DNA from: a virus
Lineage: Duplodnaviria > Heunggongvirae > Uroviricota > Caudoviricetes
DNA length: 4,788 nt
Strand: one strand, 5' to 3'
IMG/VR virus record: IMGVR_UViG_2693429642_000015
Coordinates: 1 to 4,788 of that record
Position 1 is the first letter of the stretch. Each line of letters begins with the position of its first letter. Under the pieces are notes generated by a model that saw only the letters and a program-made list of their open reading frames with translations, searched no databases and was not told where the DNA came from. Position numbers and translations under genes: made by a program. Shown here one piece after another: positions 1 to 4,788 of this stretch.

Positions 1-128
1 ACCTTCTGACATTCACGGTCAACCAGGCTAACACGTAGAACATGCCCTGCAGGCGTGGTGTACCACTGACCCGGACGAGGACAACGGAAAGTATGATTGG
101 TAAACCGTTTGAAAATATTCCGGATCAT
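1..128 (-). CDS. Partial CDS (5' end only, continues past window start); hypothetical early-operon protein
   Basis: ATG at 128..126 on the minus strand overlaps the TGA stop (127..125) of the upstream Rha-family gene (plus-strand 125-128 = tcat, i.e. ATGA). The frame then stays open for 42 codons to the window edge (MIRNIFKRFTNHTFRCPRPGQWYTTPAGHVLRVSLVDRECQK...). Too short to appear in the supplied ORF track. Product not recognisable from this fragment. Confidence 0.35.
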   Translation of the reverse strand, partial: MIRNIFKRFTNHTFRCPRPGQWYTTPAGHVLRVSLVDRECQK

Positions 129-985
129 TTGCGCCCCCTTACCTCTGAAGGGTTCAGCGACAAATTTATGAGACTGGCCAGTAGCGCCGCGTCGTTGATG
201 CGGTCATACAGACTTACAGCCAGCGGGGATTCGGCTTTTGCCAACATGGGATAAAGCTGCTGCAGCCAGACCTTGTGGATTACCGACAGGTGGGAGTAAA
301 GCACGCTGGCGTTATCTGCGGCATCGCTCAGCGTGGATGGCTTTGAAAGCAGTTTTTCCATCTGGTTAAAGGCATTTATGTATGCCTCTTTGAACCGGGC
401 AGCACGTTTACCAGTGAAGCCCATGGCAAGAAACGCAAAACCGTCGCGGGTGATTTGGTAACAAGGGAGTTTGCGGCCTGATGCGTCGGTGTATTCACTT
501 AACACAAAATTGTGTTCAGTAAATTCAGCGGAACATTCGAGGTTTCTAATTCTATCTAAAACCCGCTCATGCCGTTTAGTAAAGTAATTAGCTACTGCAA
601 GAGATGTGGTGACAACGCGACCATTGATAATCGTGATTTCAGGGTGAGATTGGGTTGGGAGAGTAGTCATGGTGACAGCCCCTATGTTGAATTCAATGAA
701 CTCACCACCAAGGCTTTCCACGACCATATAGGTGGTGAGACGTACAGGGGTGGAAATACCGGTCAACATAGAACCCGGCCCAACCGAAGTTGGCCCTGCA
801 CGCCCCACCATAATTTGGGCGTAACGATGCTCATGACACGAAAAAACCGCATGAGCGCGGTTGTGCTCTATATTGAATTTCGGGTTTCCACGCCCGGCCC
901 CCGCTTTATAAGGTGCCTGAGCAGTGTAACGTCCCGGAATTGCAGAATCAATATGCAAACGGTTATTTGCCGTTAAACTATTCAT
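125..985 (-). CDS. Rha-family phage regulatory protein (Rha-like domain at residues ~106-190); 286 aa as drawn, alternative start at 670 would give 181 aa
   Basis: The 286-aa ORF is in the supplied track. The segment MTTLPTQSHPEITIINGRVVTTSLAVANYFTKRHERVLDRIRNL... matches, from memory, the characteristic N-terminus of Rha-family proteins (Pfam Phage_pRha-like). The ATG at 985..983 overlaps the TGA stop of the upstream CII-like gene (plus-strand 982-985 = tcat). The internal Met at 670..668 is preceded by a G-rich SD-like stretch (AGGGG, about 8 nt upstream) and begins exactly where Rha proteins normally begin. The upstream 105 codons (Gly/Pro/Arg/His-rich) are unrecognisable. Confidence 0.7.
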   Translation of the reverse strand: MNSLTANNRLHIDSAIPGRYTAQAPYKAGAGRGNPKFNIEHNRAHAVFSCHEHRYAQIMVGRAGPTSVGPGSMLTGISTPVRLTTYMVVESLGGEFIEFNIGAVTMTTLPTQSHPEITIINGRVVTTSLAVANYFTKRHERVLDRIRNLECSAEFTEHNFVLSEYTDASGRKLPCYQITRDGFAFLAMGFTGKRAARFKEAYINAFNQMEKLLSKPSTLSDAADNASVLYSHLSVIHKVWLQQLYPMLAKAESPLAVSLYDRINDAALLASLINLSLNPSEVRGRK

Positions 986-1551
986 GCGTTAGTTTCTCCA
1001 CAACCAGAAGCAATCGACGCCACGACGCCCGGAGCTGCACACTCGCGGGCGTTACTCTTTTCTGGAGCGCAGAAGATTTTGTAGACCAGTGCTGCATGCT
1101 CCTGGAGCTTCGAAATTGAAAGATACAGTTCGTCGTTAATTGCTGTTTTCTCATGCGGTTCCACTACCCCATCTTCGATTGCCGAACGAATCTGCTTTGA
1201 GTAACTCCCGATCTGTTCGATGACTTCCAGCAGACGCTGGTTAATATCGGCGTTGTCCACATCCTCGACGTCAGGAAGAGACACAAAGACGCCATTTGCA
1301 GACTGCGCCACAGCGTCAGCAATGAAGTGAGTTCCACCAGCACGTTGTAAAATCATTGCCCATCCCAGCGGGAAAATCTGATCGCCATCGGCACGAAGGC
1401 GATTGAATAAAGCGTTCTCTGTTACATCCAGCCACTCAGCAGCTTCAGCGTAACCCCCCGGCAACGCCGCGATAGTTTTTCTGACAGCTTTCACGTACCA
1501 CTCAGGCTGTTTTTCTACTTTCCAGTGATGCTTACCCACGGTTAGCCTCAT
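982..1551 (-). CDS. CII-like early regulatory protein (phage 186 CII / CP76-type or YdaT-position protein)
   Basis: 189-aa ORF in the supplied track, immediately downstream of the Cro-like gene on the same strand, which is the cII position. The segment ENALFNRLRADGDQIFPLGWAMIL resembles, from memory, the HTH region of phage 186 CII-type regulators (…LRNKLNPDQPH…). The ATG at 1551 has a weak SD; an in-frame GTG four codons downstream has a GAGG SD at 6 nt spacing, so the exact start is uncertain. Being a real CDS is more certain than the family assignment. Confidence 0.6.
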   Translation of the reverse strand: MRLTVGKHHWKVEKQPEWYVKAVRKTIAALPGGYAEAAEWLDVTENALFNRLRADGDQIFPLGWAMILQRAGGTHFIADAVAQSANGVFVSLPDVEDVDNADINQRLLEVIEQIGSYSKQIRSAIEDGVVEPHEKTAINDELYLSISKLQEHAALVYKIFCAPEKSNARECAAPGVVASIASGCGETNA

Positions 1552-1582
1552 CGTTCTGTGGTTAAAAATTGAAGGTGTTCTG

Positions 1583-1783
1583 TTAATCTTTCGGATAGAT
1601 ATCCGGTCTTAAGTCAGATTTCGTAATTGCACCTGACGTGCATTGCTCAAGTTTTTTAGCCAGCACAAAACTGGCTTTTTTATAACCATTGAAAACCAGC
1701 CGTAAGTAGCCTGGTGTTGAGCCAACTTTTCCGGCCAACTCGCCCTGCTGTTCTTTGGTTAAAGAGTCCCAATACGCTTTCAT
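1583..1783 (-). CDS. Cro-like small HTH regulator (YdaS-like), 66 aa
   Basis: Minus-strand ORF; the track gives a start at 1807, but the second Met at 1783 (MKAYWDSLTKEQQGELAGKVGSTPGYLRLVFNGYKKASFVLAKKLEQCTSGAITKSDLRPDIYPKD) is preceded by a strong SD (GGAGG, minus strand 1798..1794, about 10 nt upstream). Small size, HTH-like middle segment and C-terminal LRPDI motif recall Rac YdaS / Cro-like proteins. It is divergent from the CI-type repressor gene, the classic cro position. Confidence 0.7.
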   Translation of the reverse strand: MKAYWDSLTKEQQGELAGKVGSTPGYLRLVFNGYKKASFVLAKKLEQCTSGAITKSDLRPDIYPKD

Positions 1784-1788
1784 ACAAT

Positions 1789-1807
1789 ATGTACCTCCAA
1801 TATACAT
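1789..1807. promoter_or_regulatory. Candidate operator OR-a (ATGTACC-TCCAA-TATACAT), overlapping the Cro-like gene SD/start region
   Basis: 7-5-7 imperfect inverted repeat whose half-sites (ATGTACC / ATGTATA) match those of the perfect palindrome at 1839-1857 and the PL-associated sites at 2593-2631. A weak minus-strand promoter candidate (TTTAAG 1833..1828, 16-nt spacer, TAGTAT 1811..1806) would place this site at the PR-like -10/TSS. Confidence 0.45.
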
Positions 1808-1838
1808 ACTACATGATTGAGATGAACCTTAAAGATAC

Positions 1839-1857
1839 TTGTACCCTATCGGTACAA
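1839..1857. promoter_or_regulatory. Candidate operator OR-b: perfect palindrome TTGTACC-CTATC-GGTACAA
   Basis: Perfect 7-bp inverted repeat with a 5-bp spacer, read directly from the sequence, located in the divergent repressor/cro intergenic region. Same half-site family as the sites at 1789-1807 and 2593-2631. Confidence 0.6.
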
Positions 1858-1873
1858 AGGTTTTAATTTCGTT
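1839..1873 (+). promoter_or_regulatory. Candidate PRM-like promoter for the repressor gene, giving a leaderless mRNA
   Basis: TTGTAC (1839-1844), 17-bp spacer, TTTAAT (1862-1867; 5/6 to TATAAT); the predicted start falls on or next to the A of the repressor ATG at 1874. There is no convincing SD upstream of that ATG (AAAGG is 12 nt away), consistent with leaderless translation as for lambda cI from PRM. Weak -35 match, so tentative. Confidence 0.3.
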
Positions 1874-2548
1874 ATGAAAACAGTCCATGACATCCGGCGG
1901 TCTAACGCCAGAAAACTGAGAGATGGTGTTGGCGGGAATTCTTCCTTTGCCACCATGATTGATCGCGAGCCAACCCAGACCAGCAGGTTTATGGGAGATG
2001 GTGCTACTAAAAATATCGGTGACAGCATGGCACGGCACATCGAAAAATGTTTCGACCTGCCTGTCGGATGGCTTGATCAAGAACACCAGACAACAAACAT
2101 CACAAAAAAACCTGATGTTTCAATTACTAACAAACAAATAACGTTAGTCCCTGTCATATCATGGGTACAGGCCGGAGCATGGAAAGAAGTTGGCTATTCT
2201 GAGGTTGATTTGAGCACAGCAGAAACTTATCCCTGCCCTGTACCCTGTGGCGAAATGACTTATATCTTGCGGGTGATTGGTGATTCAATGATTGATGAGT
2301 ACCGCCCGGGAGACATGATTTTTGTAGATCCTGAAGTCCCTGCCTGCCACGGTGACGACGTTATTGCATTGATGCACGATACAGGCGAAACCACCTTTAA
2401 GCGGTTGATAGAAGATGGAACACAGCGTTACCTCAAAGCATTAAACCCAAACTGGCCTGAACCTTACATTAAGATCAACGGTAATTGCTCTATAATTGGC
2501 ACAGTAATTTTCTCAGGAAAACCAAGAAGATACAAAATAAAGGCCTAA
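1874..2548 (+). CDS. cI: CI-type prophage repressor: N-terminal DNA-binding (HTH-like) domain plus C-terminal S24 (LexA/CI-like) autopeptidase domain
   Basis: 224-aa ORF in the track. The C-terminal region VIGDSMIDEYRPGDMIFVDPEVPACHGDDVIALMHDTGETTFKRLIEDGTQRYLKALNPNWP...GTVIFSG aligns by eye with the lambda CI / LexA catalytic domain (GDSM serine nucleophile, TFKRL lysine). The linker motif VQAGAW (Ala100-Gly101, nt 2171-2176) matches the lambda CI Ala-Gly autocleavage context VQAGMF. Divergent from the Cro-like gene and followed by an intrinsic terminator. Confidence 0.85.
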   Translation: MKTVHDIRRSNARKLRDGVGGNSSFATMIDREPTQTSRFMGDGATKNIGDSMARHIEKCFDLPVGWLDQEHQTTNITKKPDVSITNKQITLVPVISWVQAGAWKEVGYSEVDLSTAETYPCPVPCGEMTYILRVIGDSMIDEYRPGDMIFVDPEVPACHGDDVIALMHDTGETTFKRLIEDGTQRYLKALNPNWPEPYIKINGNCSIIGTVIFSGKPRRYKIKA

Positions 2549-2559
2549 TCAATATTTAT

Positions 2560-2582
2560 AACCTGCTTCGGCAGGTTTTTTT
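2560..2582 (+). terminator. Rho-independent terminator of the repressor gene
   Basis: Stem AACCTGC (2560-2566) / GCAGGTT (2571-2577) with a TTCG tetraloop, running into a T-tract (2576-2582), 12 nt after the repressor stop codon (2546-2548). Confidence 0.7.
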
Positions 2583-2586
2583 ATAC

Positions 2587-2614
2587 TTGACAATGTACCC
2601 TTGAGATACATAAT
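2587..2614 (+). promoter_or_regulatory. PL-like sigma70 promoter (early-left promoter)
   Basis: TTGACA (2587-2592, perfect -35), 16-bp spacer, CATAAT (2609-2614; 5/6 to TATAAT). Predicted TSS about 2621. Interdigitated with operator-like repeats, the arrangement expected for a repressor-controlled early promoter. Confidence 0.6.
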
Positions 2615-2631
2615 GTATCTAAAAGAAACAT
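2593..2631. promoter_or_regulatory. Tandem candidate operators OL-a (ATGTACC-CTTGA-GATACAT, 2593-2611) and OL-b (ATGTATC-TAAAA-GAAACAT, 2613-2631)
   Basis: Two adjacent 7-5-7 inverted repeats with the same half-site family as the OR sites. The junction forms a perfect palindrome GATACAT-A-ATGTATC (2605-2619) spanning the -10 hexamer. OL-a lies in the promoter spacer and OL-b covers the -10/TSS. Confidence 0.5.
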
Positions 2632-3097
2632 GTCACAGGCAAGATTAAACAAAATTTGGTTGTAACACGGCGTATGGCACATGCGTCGTTAGCGGTCTGG
2701 GGACGTTAAAGGGGACAATCCACTCCTTGCTCGGGCAAACAAACCAGGTAGCCGGAATGTGCAAGTCAATGAGGATGCTGATAAGACGCCTAACCAGCGT
2801 GGCGGTTCGGTTTGACACCTGGGAAGAGACCAGGGTGCAACGATGAGGGCATTTATGGAACCGCGACAAAGTGTGGTGCCGTAACTGGCTAAGTGCTCTC
2901 AGCGTTGTGGTGAATGCGCAGGCTGATGCACGAAAGACATTGCAGCTATTGCGGAAAAGAGCTGTTCGGCGGGGCAATTAAACGCCCGTGAGAGTCTGAA
3001 ATAACCGCAAGCCGGAGATCAGCATCGGTCACCACAGCAGCCACTGCTTTGGCGGTACCAGTTTGTACACTTGCTTCCGGCTGGTACCGCTCTTTTT
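2621..3097 (+). ncRNA. Candidate untranslated early-left transcript or long structured leader (about 480 nt, no credible ORF) between the PL-like promoter and a strong terminator
   Basis: From the predicted TSS to the terminator, stops occur in all three plus frames; the longest ATG-initiated plus-strand ORF is 29 aa, and others are 11-25 aa without good SDs. The only track ORF here (minus 2645..2977) has a TTG start, no Met and a low-complexity Arg-rich translation. GC is about 54% by hand count versus about 40% in the adjacent rdgC-like gene. Several local hairpins are visible (e.g. 2817-2823/2831-2838, 2970-2988). Transcript status is inferred, not demonstrated. Confidence 0.3.
3051..3097 (+). 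terminator. Strong rho-independent terminator (tL1-like) upstream of the rdgC-like gene
   Basis: Perfect 10-bp stem GCGGTACCAG (3052-3061) / CTGGTACCGC (3081-3090) enclosing a 19-nt loop, followed directly by TCTTTTT (3091-3097). Confidence 0.65.
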
Positions 3098-3220
3098 ACA
3101 AAACAGAGAAGAGCATCACCGGACGACGGGCTCATAACCCAATCCACCCGGGCGGCTGCCACCGCAGGTGTTCTTCTCTGTTTTGTGGAGAAACTAATAT
3201 CTTGTGCAGAGGAAAATAGA

Positions 3221-4138
3221 ATGAAATTACCAAAATTTCGTAACGCAATTGTGTACCGAGCAACATTACCTAGTATACAGGCTATTGAAGGTCATCTTCT
3301 CGAACTCCCTTATTCTGAAATCGGGGAAACAGAACTTTCACGGTCCTCTTTTGTAGAGAATCCTGTCACTGGTGAACTGGTAACTCCGATATCTGGTGGG
3401 TACGCAATGGTAATCCGTCATGATCAGAAAATAATTCCCCGACATGTCGTCATGAAAGAAGCTAATTCTCGAATCCAAACAATCGAAAATATGTCCGGGA
3501 ATAAATTAAAGCGTGCCGAACGACTGACCATTATTGATAACGTACGAGTAGATCTATGCAAACAGGCATTTGTTAAGTCTACGCTGATTCTTGCATTGTA
3601 CAGCACTGATGAGAAATTATTGGTAATCAACACAACCAATAAAATAATAGCCGGTATGGTATGCGCAATGCTGATTAAGGTTGTCGGTTCAGTGAAAACA
3701 GAAACAATCAACATCAGTGATATCAAGAATGGACTGACTACACGCCTGAATAACTACATCAATGGTGCAGCCAATGCATTTGAAGGATTCACTGTCGGAA
3801 ATTATATTCAGCTATCACGCTACGCAGATCAAAAGGAAATTATTCGCTACTCAGCTGAGCATGAGTCAATTCAAAGCGAACTGGCCGATAGCCTTAGTAG
3901 TAGTTTCACTGCTGATAAAATGGAGTTATCCGGTTGCGGTGTGACCTTCATTCTTACCGAAAATTTCCATTTTTCGCGCATCAATACTCAATCTCAGACA
4001 TTTAATGATGAAGATGATAAAGCATTCCAGTGGCGTCATCAGACTGGCGCTGACCTTTTCCAATTCAGCAAGGTAGTTAATTTGATGTGTGACCTTCTTT
4101 CTTACAAAGAAGATAAAAGCCAAAATCCAACAACTTAA
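3221..4138 (+). CDS. RdgC-family recombination-associated protein (phage-encoded), 305 aa
   Basis: ATG at 3221 preceded by SD GAGGA (3209-3213, 7-nt spacing). The N-terminus MKLPKFRNAIVYRATLP... parallels E. coli RdgC (MLWFKNLMVYRL..., from memory), with further collinear similarity through the first ~170 residues. The track's TTG start at 3071 lies inside the terminator and is rejected. AT-rich coding sequence typical of phage genes. It may correspond to the CPS-53 yfdQ position, but I cannot confirm that. Confidence 0.75.
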   Translation: MKLPKFRNAIVYRATLPSIQAIEGHLLELPYSEIGETELSRSSFVENPVTGELVTPISGGYAMVIRHDQKIIPRHVVMKEANSRIQTIENMSGNKLKRAERLTIIDNVRVDLCKQAFVKSTLILALYSTDEKLLVINTTNKIIAGMVCAMLIKVVGSVKTETINISDIKNGLTTRLNNYINGAANAFEGFTVGNYIQLSRYADQKEIIRYSAEHESIQSELADSLSSSFTADKMELSGCGVTFILTENFHFSRINTQSQTFNDEDDKAFQWRHQTGADLFQFSKVVNLMCDLLSYKEDKSQNPTT

Positions 4139-4143
4139 AAAAA

Positions 4144-4185
4144 TTGCAGCAATCATCCCATGTCAAATGGGCTGGATTGCTGCAA
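4144..4185. repeat. Long interrupted inverted repeat / hairpin in the rdgC-like to yfdR-like intergenic region
   Basis: Perfect 11-bp arms TTGCAGCAATC (4144-4154) / GATTGCTGCAA (4175-4185), plus an inner 5-bp stem CCCAT (4157-4161) / ATGGG (4167-4171) with loop GTCAA. An A7 run (4137-4143) lies immediately 5' on the plus strand, so on the minus strand the hairpin is followed by T7, a terminator-like configuration for minus-strand transcription. Confidence 0.5.
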
Positions 4186-4228
4186 TCAAAATTCAGAGCG
4201 GTGCAGCGCATATAACGTGGAGAACAAA

Positions 4229-4765
4229 ATGTCATTTATTAAAACTTTTTCCGGGAAGCATTTTTATTATGACAAGATAAATAAAGACGACATCGTGATT
4301 AACGATATCGCGGTTTCCCTTTCAAATATCTGCCGCTTTGCCGGTCATCTTTCTCATTTCTACAGCGTCGCCCAACATGCGGTGCTTTGCAGCCAGCTGG
4401 TACCGCAGGAATTTGCTTTTGAAGCATTAATGCATGATGCAACAGAAGCGTATTGCCAGGACATCCCCGCGCCACTGAAACGCCTTCTTCCTGACTATAA
4501 ACGGATGGAAGAAAAAATAGACGCCGTAATCCGTGAGAAATACGGGTTACCTCCTGTTATGAGCACGCCAGTGAAATATGCCGATCTCATTATGCTGGCA
4601 ACCGAACGTCGCGATCTCGGGCTTGATGATGGCTCTTTCTGGCCAGTACTGGAAGGTATCCCGGCAACAGAAATGTTCAAAGTTATTCCACTGGCTCCGA
4701 GCCATGCCTACGGGATGTTTATGGAGCGCTTTAACGAGTTATCGGAGTTACGCACATGCGCATGA
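4229..4765 (+). CDS. yfdR: HD-domain 5'-deoxynucleotidase-like protein (YfdR-like), 178 aa
   Basis: ATG at 4229 with SD GGAG (4219-4222, 6-nt spacing). The track's upstream ATG at 4160 lacks an SD and lies inside the hairpin. The translation carries the HD motif (HLSHFYSVAQH...MHDATEAY). Length and sequence match my recollection of E. coli K-12 CPS-53 YfdR, but this should be verified by search. Confidence 0.75.
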   Translation: MSFIKTFSGKHFYYDKINKDDIVINDIAVSLSNICRFAGHLSHFYSVAQHAVLCSQLVPQEFAFEALMHDATEAYCQDIPAPLKRLLPDYKRMEEKIDAVIREKYGLPPVMSTPVKYADLIMLATERRDLGLDDGSFWPVLEGIPATEMFKVIPLAPSHAYGMFMERFNELSELRTCA

Positions 4766-4788
4766 ATGTTTTCGAAATGGAAGGGTTT
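4756..4788 (+). CDS. Partial CDS (start only); next gene of the yfdR-like operon, possibly yfdS-like
   Basis: ATG at 4756 with SD GGAG (4744-4747, 8-nt spacing), in frame with a second ATG at 4762 that overlaps the yfdR-like TGA stop (ATGA). Open to the window end (MRMNVFEMEGF...). Identity cannot be judged from 11 codons. Confidence 0.35.
   Translation, partial: MRMNVFEMEGF

Follow-up and report, generated by a model that had tools for sequence, protein, structure and literature searches.

Several structured and small RNAs have been described from phages and prophages. DicF, encoded in the dicB operon of the Qin prophage of Escherichia coli K-12, a repressor-controlled early-left operon of a lambdoid prophage, is released from the transcript of that operon through RNase E and RNase III cleavage, or has its end set by termination; its processing was reportedly described by Faubladier et al. 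in 1990. The C4 RNA of P1 and the CI RNA of P4 are processed from the leader of an early or immunity operon, possess acceptor-like terminal stems and are processed by RNase P. In HK022, an N-less lambdoid phage, the put RNA lies directly downstream of PL; it is about 70 nt long, is made up of two stem-loops and occurs in two copies, putL and putR. The stable rnaC and rnaD RNAs of T4 (species 1 and 2; 119-139 nt) abut same-strand phage tRNA genes. ROOL and GOLLD are encoded by phages and prophages, often near tRNAs, and adopt complex pseudoknotted folds; a tRNA can sit inside their variable region beside the conserved domain (PMC12286853). STnc100 and PasD are prophage small RNAs (sRNAs) with distinct seeds and targets (PMC13192938, PMC12370729), and the literature places copies of STnc100 downstream of stx2. 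The locus compared with these RNAs here lies in a viral DNA of 4,788 nt (Caudoviricetes; IMG/VR record IMGVR_UViG_2693429642_000015, positions 1 to 4,788), hereafter the window, which by its Pfam results is the immunity region of a lambdoid prophage of the SfV/cdtI/mEp460 type. Downstream of a PL-like promoter, positions 2621-3097 of its plus strand form a three-module non-coding RNA unit, composed of a 5′ domain (2668-2906), a tRNA-shaped cassette and a DicF-like terminator, of which the 5′ domain is the new part. In lambdoid phages that have no N (SfV, cdtI, mEp460 and several Stx2 phages), the leader of the early-left operon has been a blank until now; the blank can now be described as a modular RNA unit with testable anatomy.

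A three-module RNA unit downstream of the PL-like promoter

The features of the unit and of its promoter region are as follows.

2560..2581, plus strand: intrinsic terminator of the cI gene (7-bp stem, T-run)
2587..2614, plus strand: PL-like sigma-70 promoter TTGACA-16-CATAAT (11/12 consensus positions), directly after the cI terminator
2593..2631, no strand assigned: operator-like inverted repeat (19-nt arms, 79% complementary), overlapping the promoter
2668..2834, plus strand: pseudoknotted core of the 5′ domain (covariance model R1, 135.6 bits, E 7e-42)
2668-2676/2680-2688, plus strand: helix P1
2692-2699/2745-2752, plus strand: helix P2, with an apical insert containing CCUUG
2747-2765, plus strand: near-invariant 19-mer GGUAGCCGGAAUGUGCAAG
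2765-2767/2801-2803, plus strand: helix P3
2786-2789/2797-2800, plus strand: helix P4
2792-2795 with 2809-2812, plus strand: pseudoknot between the P4 loop NCACC and a downstream GGUGN
2818-2822/2830-2834, plus strand: helix P5
2839-2853 with 2892-2906, plus strand: P6, a helix of about 15 bp around a variable hairpin (dG -33.4, z -4.1)
2907..3036, plus strand: tRNA-shaped cassette of 130 nt, with acceptor-, D- and T-like arms and a variable insert
3036..3048, plus strand: small hairpin AGCAGCCACUGCU between cassette and terminator, at the position of the DicF 5′ part in Qin
3051..3097, plus strand: strong intrinsic terminator; homology to DicF covers its 5′ arm and the lead-in UUUGGCGGUACCAGUUU (3048-3064)
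3095..3198 (stem 3095-3189), plus strand: post-terminator hairpin with a 23-bp stem (dG -47.1, z -6.7)

The promoter sequence is identical in SfV. Judged from its position, transcription would start near 2621, and the repressor would be expected to bind at the inverted repeat 2593..2631. The original prediction had placed a repressor-controlled, structured RNA in this slot, which in lambda holds N, and the near-consensus promoter agrees with it, as does the folding of the full 477 nt against shuffles (z -2.6 on the plus strand, -1.26 on the minus strand). No N-like ORF with a family match stands as the first gene after PL, that gene being rdgC, and mEp460 carries no N annotation. The further claims that the region is free of genes, that its only long ORF is antisense and that it is enriched in GC were all borne out. 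Plus-strand ORFs within 2621-3097 amount to 39, 26, 36 and 25 amino acids (aa), and the longest ATG-started one, of 29 aa (MCKSMRM...), is nested in the 39-aa TTG ORF. The sole long ORF, of 110 aa (2645-2977), is antisense and Arg-rich, begins with TTG and contains no internal Met; in mEp460 it carries the label "hypothetical protein". A Pfam search of all ORFs in 2621-3097 gave no match. GC content is 0.535-0.545 over 2701-3100 (about 0.54) versus 0.38-0.45 in the next gene (about 0.40), and the plus strand of the region has a positive G>C skew. Rfam 15 and ARAGORN reported nothing over 2560-3230.

Fold and covariation of the 5′ domain

Homologues were gathered with exact-motif seeds; the true diversity is therefore at least that observed, and the invariance of the seed regions may be overstated. 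When 33 diverse copies were set against the model of P1 to P5 and the pseudoknot, 97.9% of cells were paired, and both sides had changed in 11 pairs, covering 67 cells. None of 500 shuffles reached the real value, and slid controls were 28-48% paired. The pseudoknot pair switches from C-G to A-U with zero mismatches across 70 metagenome copies. P6 covaries as well, its strands pairing with their own 3′ partners at -18.3 kcal/mol versus -12.5 with foreign ones (24 variants), and its 3′ strand stops exactly at the first base of the cassette. Compensatory changes are already visible when the mEp390 element is aligned with that of the window. No reading frame is conserved across the homologues, four of which have no open frame, and the indels among them have lengths that are not multiples of three. 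Rfam 15 contains no family for the 5′ domain, nor for the core of a consensus-like relative. On these sequence comparisons, the 5′ domain bears the hallmarks of a functional tertiary fold.

The original prediction, made from a single sequence, had put forward blastn homologues and covariation as its check, and both were found. The structure it had seen is present, but the real structure consists of the conserved helices, which are invisible from one sequence. The 9-bp long-range complement it had pointed to (2774-2782/3018-3026) likewise exists, but it is at chance level (0.46 such seeds per dinucleotide shuffle), lies outside the conserved fold and cannot form in cdtI and Ayreon, which have a near-identical core and a different cassette type; its reading as a P4-style seqA/seqB pair was rejected, being at chance level and not conserved. 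A further pairing proposed by RNAalifold, between GCACAU (2677-2682) and AUGUGC (2757-2762), was also set aside, as it conflicts with the covarying P1 and both of its sides are invariant.

A YCCUUGA/CCUUG motif recurs in the apical loop of P2 (about 2725-2731 in the window) and, in many relatives, in the loop of the terminator hairpin of the unit. It is complementary to CAAG of the 19-mer and may be a loop-receptor or protein-binding motif.

Distribution and genomic contexts of the 5′ domain

Close relatives of 2648-3197, at 96-99% identity by megablast, are present in mEp460, cdtI, Ayreon and many Stx2 phages, where they are labelled as hypothetical proteins or not at all. In more sensitive blastn searches the region breaks, as a mosaic, into segments common to unrelated phages: 2654-2831 matches the stretch that immediately follows trnI in the C1-controlled ban operon of P1 and P7; 2667-2910 matches phiV10-type phages directly before tRNA-Arg; 2891-3039 matches a P1-like phage directly after tRNA-Thr, as well as Klebsiella phages; and 3050-3198 matches SfV. 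An exact search with the 19-mer recovered viral contigs (more than 120) and genomes of about 23 Enterobacterales species, with 115 distinct cores, a tally that leaves out one chance match and contigs of metagenome-assembled genomes (MAGs) that are probably mis-binned. Both kinds of exclusion occurred among GTDB MAGs labelled Oscillospiraceae and Bacillota: in L032 the core is genuine, but the 1.7-kb contig that carries it is probably enterobacterial phage DNA binned wrongly, and L020 has a chance 19-mer match within unrelated sequence. A scan with an independent motif yielded 80 metagenome loci, of which 78 match R1 and 66 of these 78 have the exact 19-mer, so that its invariance is not merely a by-product of the first search. 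No paper containing the exact 19-mer was found in a literature search.

The 5′ domain occurs in 1375 of 5426 complete E. coli genomes (about 25%) and in about 590 plasmid records (P1-like), in which it is never annotated. Model R1 finds a single copy per genome, as in the window and in the complete genome of mEp460, and has no match in SfV, the PL region of HK022, the T4 tRNA cluster or Qin of K-12. Carriers are lambdoid phages of several immunity types, in which the domain lies just 3′ of the repressor gene, P1-like phages (ban operon) and epsilon15-like phages. In at least 63 of 152 loci, the gene immediately 5′ of the element, on its own strand, encodes an S24 repressor, and these repressors cover two major clusters; mEp390, with a different repressor, has the same element after PL.

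The other recurrent neighbour is a tRNA. ARAGORN placed a same-strand tRNA beside the core in 47 of the 152 loci, and the 5′ domain adjoins a tRNA or tRNA-shaped RNA of the same strand or is separated from it by up to about 16 nt. In P1-like phages a tRNA-Ile/Met(CAU), trnI in P1, ends 16 nt before helix P1 of the element, which in P1 itself lies about 2.3 kb from the promoter Pban and just before ban. In phiV10-type phages the first base of tRNA-Arg comes immediately behind the P6 3′ strand (GCGUU|G), and the tRNA fills, in register, the slot that holds the cassette in the window.

Among epsilon15-like Uetakevirus phages (L004, L008, L156-L158), the element is part of an ORF-poor island of about 1 kb between terminase and the genes on the portal side. 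Behind the core comes tRNA-Arg(UCU) in phiV10-type phages and BUCT711, and a cassette in Tyrion; the island is closed by terminators, two in tandem in phiV10-type phages and Tyrion. A simple scan found no consensus promoter upstream of it. Downstream of the RNA island of Enterobacter phage Tyrion (L008 3098-3162), Rfam identifies an int-alpA RNA at 44 bits, above the gathering score.

The tRNA-shaped cassette, the terminator and the post-terminator hairpin

The cassette has the geometry of a tRNA: a 7-bp acceptor-like stem (GUGGUGA/UCACCAC, then A), a 2-nt spacer, a 4-bp D-like stem (GCGC-AGGCUGAU-GCGC, loop 2920-2927) and a T-like arm (GCCGG-AGAUCAGCA-CCGGC, loop 3016-3024) that abuts the acceptor 3′ strand. 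The D- and T-like loops are mutually complementary (GCUGAU/AUCAGC), and an insert of about 80 nt stands where the anticodon arm would be. The two stems covary, with 97.9% of cells paired and 5 compensatory pairs, and some relatives of the cassette have the canonical T loop GGUUCGAUUCC. At least ten cassette types were distinguished, in which the insert differs and the ends are kept; such constancy of the ends suggests that cassettes are exchanged at conserved junctions. Neither ARAGORN nor the Rfam tRNA model calls a tRNA in the cassette, which is devoid of an anticodon arm and of canonical D and T loops, and despite the tRNA-shaped cassette the idea of hidden tRNA genes in the window was rejected with the same two tools. 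A remnant of a zinc-ribbon/HNH gene (MRRLMHERHCSYCGKEL, 2914-2991) was considered and dropped, as these bases form the conserved D-like arm, and Pfam gave no match. In the P1-like phage JL22 (L005 2501-2649), a window-type cassette stands directly after tRNA-Thr in the ban operon and is overlapped on the opposite strand by an annotated plp lipoprotein coding sequence.

The terminator has perfect 10-nt arms (3052-3061/3081-3090) followed by UCUUUUU (dG -21.2 kcal/mol, z -4.3), as strong as had been claimed from the sequence; a simple terminator scanner overlooked it only because its loop exceeds 8 nt. The GGCGGU...ACCGCC-UUUUUACA hairpin closes the unit in both lambdoid and epsilon15-like contexts, and a second terminator follows the unit's own in several epsilon15-like and other loci. 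A resemblance of CGCUCUUUUUACAA (3087-3100) to boxA is not kept in SfV or mEp390 and was discarded.

The post-terminator hairpin belongs to the unit even though it lies beyond 2621-3097. At its base, the U-tract of the terminator is paired with the conserved tail UUGUGGAGAAACUAAU, and at least three unrelated types of stem sequence keep the hairpin, all ending in UUGUGGAGAARCYAA. On transcripts that read through, it could serve as an RNase III site or mask a Shine-Dalgarno sequence.

Relationships with DicF, STnc100/PasD and other RNAs

The order of elements at Qin dicF is that of the window: a P6-type helix and a cdtI-type tRNA-shaped cassette, followed by an sRNA hairpin with an intrinsic terminator at its end. 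The lead-in and 5′ arm of Qin DicF, UUUGGCGGUAUCAGUUU, equal window 3048-3064, with UUUGGCGGUAYCAGUUU as the common arm. Further, a long stem follows the DicF terminator in Qin, encloses an SfV-type cassette and is succeeded by dicB; a long stem is also present in the window. However, DicF begins with about 19 nt that the window lacks, the window has another loop and another 3′ arm, and the known DicF seeds are absent; the window RNA is consequently not a DicF by Rfam model or seed content. In addition, Qin has no match to core model R1, and its RNA is preceded by three small genes (ydfABC), whereas the window RNA follows directly after the promoter. Among relatives, the DicF model gives weak hits in SfV (E 2) and BUCT711 (E 0.06).

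In detail, the ydfC-dicF spacer of Qin contains the P6-like helix and the cdtI-type cassette, and the dicF-dicB spacer (L281 2455-2585) contains an SfV/STnc100-type cassette (GUGGUGAAUGCGGCUGAGCGC...CACCUGGAGGCACCAGGCAC) within the long stem GUGAAUUUUGUGAUG/CAUCACAAAAUUCAU. The annotation of P1 has a "dicF-like region" in the ban operon.

The scaffold of STnc100 (RF02076) is likewise that of the window, with a UGGUGA...CACCA closing stem, a 5′ hairpin, variable middle hairpins, a 3′ hairpin abutting the stem, and a terminator; a canonical Rfam STnc100 (84 bits) is one such cassette together with its terminator. SfV has cassette ends and terminator in common with the window, and its cassette and terminator score 39.5 bits (E 7e-7) against the full STnc100 model, below the gathering score of 47 bits. 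The D- and T-like arms of the window cassette are unlike those of STnc100, and the one canonical STnc100 locus that was examined has a promoter-like sequence directly upstream, whereas the window cassette lies inside the PL transcript behind a 240-nt domain. These likenesses point to the cassette as a distant relative of the STnc100/PasD prophage sRNA family. The novelty claimed in the original prediction therefore applies to the 5′ domain, but not to the unit as a whole, which is a mosaic whose 3′ third is related to STnc100/PasD and to a DicF-type terminator. DicF and STnc100/PasD, so far isolated sRNAs, are hereby tied into one larger precursor design.

With ROOL and GOLLD the unit has in common the phage or prophage setting, the frequent proximity of tRNAs and the complex pseudoknotted fold. 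It is smaller (a domain of about 240 nt, about 480 nt overall), its hosts are Enterobacteriaceae, and the ROOL and GOLLD models of Rfam do not match it. Similarity to rnaC and rnaD of T4 was rejected upon inspection, there being no sequence likeness, and rnaC has a canonical T arm. PasA and PasC were also rejected as identities of the core, since they are late-region sRNAs and PasA is 84 nt.

A model of the unit and alternative explanations

Taken as a whole, the comparisons permit a model in which 2621-3097 is an early precursor RNA that is cut into stable trans-acting RNAs and whose terminator throttles the rdgC operon, an account that we consider probable. Under this model, inactivation of the cI-type repressor would allow the PL-like promoter to transcribe an RNA of about 477 nt, and most transcripts would stop at the terminator 3051-3097. 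The primary transcript would then probably be cut into separate stable RNAs, which may act in trans early in lytic development; processing is proposed because Qin dicF has the same layout of P6, cassette and DicF. Candidate cuts include an RNase P-type cleavage at the acceptor-like stem, cleavage by RNase E and, on read-through, RNase III cleavage of the 3095-3189 hairpin. The cassette and terminator part is predicted to be a base-pairing sRNA that probably acts on host transcripts, and the terminator may also reduce how much transcription reaches rdgC, the yfbR-like gene and the genes behind them. For the 5′ domain itself, it may tentatively be proposed, at rather less than an even chance, that it represents a new class of trans-acting structured RNA, be it protein- or ligand-binding, catalytic or self-assembling, which works with the attached tRNA or tRNA-shaped partner as an enterobacterial counterpart of ROOL/GOLLD. 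If so, it would be on within the first minutes after derepression, for example countering tRNA-targeting host defences or retuning translation, and would so far have escaped notice in P1 and in one of every four E. coli genomes; the 240-nt pseudoknotted domain is absent from Rfam 15 and from RefSeq annotation despite its presence in P1, Shiga-toxin phages and so many complete E. coli genomes.

Several observations weigh against this model. The core of P1 occurs without P6 and without the 3′ cassette, and the modules therefore need not act together. Compared with mEp460, the window cassette has two weakened pairs in its D- and T-like stems. No base-pairing targets of the cassette insert stood above shuffles in the flanks or in the whole mEp460 genome, host targets not having been searched. 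At E<=10, the window gave no hit to the Rfam DicF model (RF00039), 2870-3110 gave none to the STnc100 model, and the cassette and terminator gave none to the C4 and tRNA models; as the window reaches no Rfam model, its links with STnc100 and DicF run through the intermediates SfV, cdtI and Qin. Lastly, a strong terminator precedes the early-left genes, whose expression is left unexplained.

An alternate scenario is an immunity RNA of the P4 CI, P1 C4 or SfV type, in which an RNA processed from the leader would pair with early transcripts as they are being made, by the same phage or by a superinfecting one, and would force termination at 3097. The acceptor-like ends of the cassette resemble those of the RNase P-processed C4 and CI RNAs, and SfV, in which transcription-termination-mediated immunity is said to have been reported by Roberts, Allison and Verma in 2007 (J Gen Virol 88:3187), has the cassette ends and terminator of the window. 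PMC3475682 cites Roberts et al. 2007 for superinfection immunity mediated by a non-coding RNA. However, the complementarity of ten cassette types with their flanks amounts to chance-level 8-11-mers only, and that with the mEp460 genome is not beyond chance either; the Rfam C4 model, which finds a genuine C4 RNA on the PR side of the window at 728-815, has no hit in 2560-3230. Moreover, the repressor keeps PL off in a lysogen, and unless transcripts of cI run on into the region, the RNA would be missing at the time when immunity has to be provided. A P4/C4/SfV-type immunity role is possible for the cassette; as an explanation of the whole unit it appears unlikely.

The original prediction had also raised antitermination. 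A cis-acting processive antiterminator similar to put of HK022 would have the 5′ domain bind RNA polymerase and read through 3097 and later terminators, thereby replacing N. Its position right after PL in phages without an N gene there, with a strong terminator between PL and the early genes, is what such an element would show, and a related N-less phage may use a put-type mechanism (PMC12315714). However, upon reading HK022 putL no motif common with the window element was found, R1 finds nothing in the PL region of HK022, and the element is present once per genome, in differing contexts, as opposed to the putL and putR pair. Its placement in P1, about 2.3 kb from Pban and just before ban, and in epsilon15-like phages, at the head of a small island ending in a conserved terminator, in several cases with a second one behind it, likewise argues against such a role, and the terminator varies along with the unit in the manner of its 3′ end, not of an obstacle. 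This possibility is thus very unlikely. About as improbable is a riboswitch or attenuator leader, in which formation of the terminator at 3097 would depend on a ligand, protein or tRNA sensed by the 5′ domain. The complex pseudoknotted fold and near-invariant junction nucleotides are aptamer-like and stand upstream of a terminator, yet about 215 nt and an independent tRNA-like module separate core and terminator, no conserved anti-terminator pairing was found, and each occurs independently of the other, P1 having the core but not that terminator, and SfV and Qin having the terminator but not the core. That the region is a decayed protein gene, another of the original suggestions, or a functionless recombination scar could be argued from its mosaic make-up, with segments common to unrelated phages, and from the antisense ORF labelled in mEp460. 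Set against this are the failure of any ORF to match Pfam, the want of a frame kept across homologues, indels that are not in threes, and compensatory base changes with a near-invariant 19-mer across genera, and we regard it as scarcely tenable.

Other features of the window

The unit is flanked by genes and RNAs typical of its setting, as follows.

125-985, minus strand: Rha/antirepressor gene (Pfam)
728-815, minus strand: C4 antisense RNA (Rfam, 82 bits)
840-916, minus strand: isrK-like RNA (Rfam, 57.7 bits)
877-929, minus strand: weak c4-a1b1 target (Rfam)
982-1551, minus strand: CII-like gene (Phage_CP76; Pfam)
1583-1807, minus strand: cro-like ORF
1874-2548, plus strand: S24 repressor gene, cI (Peptidase_S24; Pfam)
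3221..4138, plus strand: RdgC-family gene, the first protein gene of the operon (Pfam)
4229-4765, plus strand: YfbR-like HD-domain gene, next after rdgC (Pfam)

Together, the C4, isrK-like and c4-a1b1 elements (728-929, minus strand) make up a module resembling P1 immI or Gifsy-1 IsrK, which belongs to the PR operon and lies upstream of the gene for Rha/antirepressor. ORF 125-985 has probably been predicted too long, and its Phage_ASH Pfam match (aa 20-116) overlies these RNA genes.

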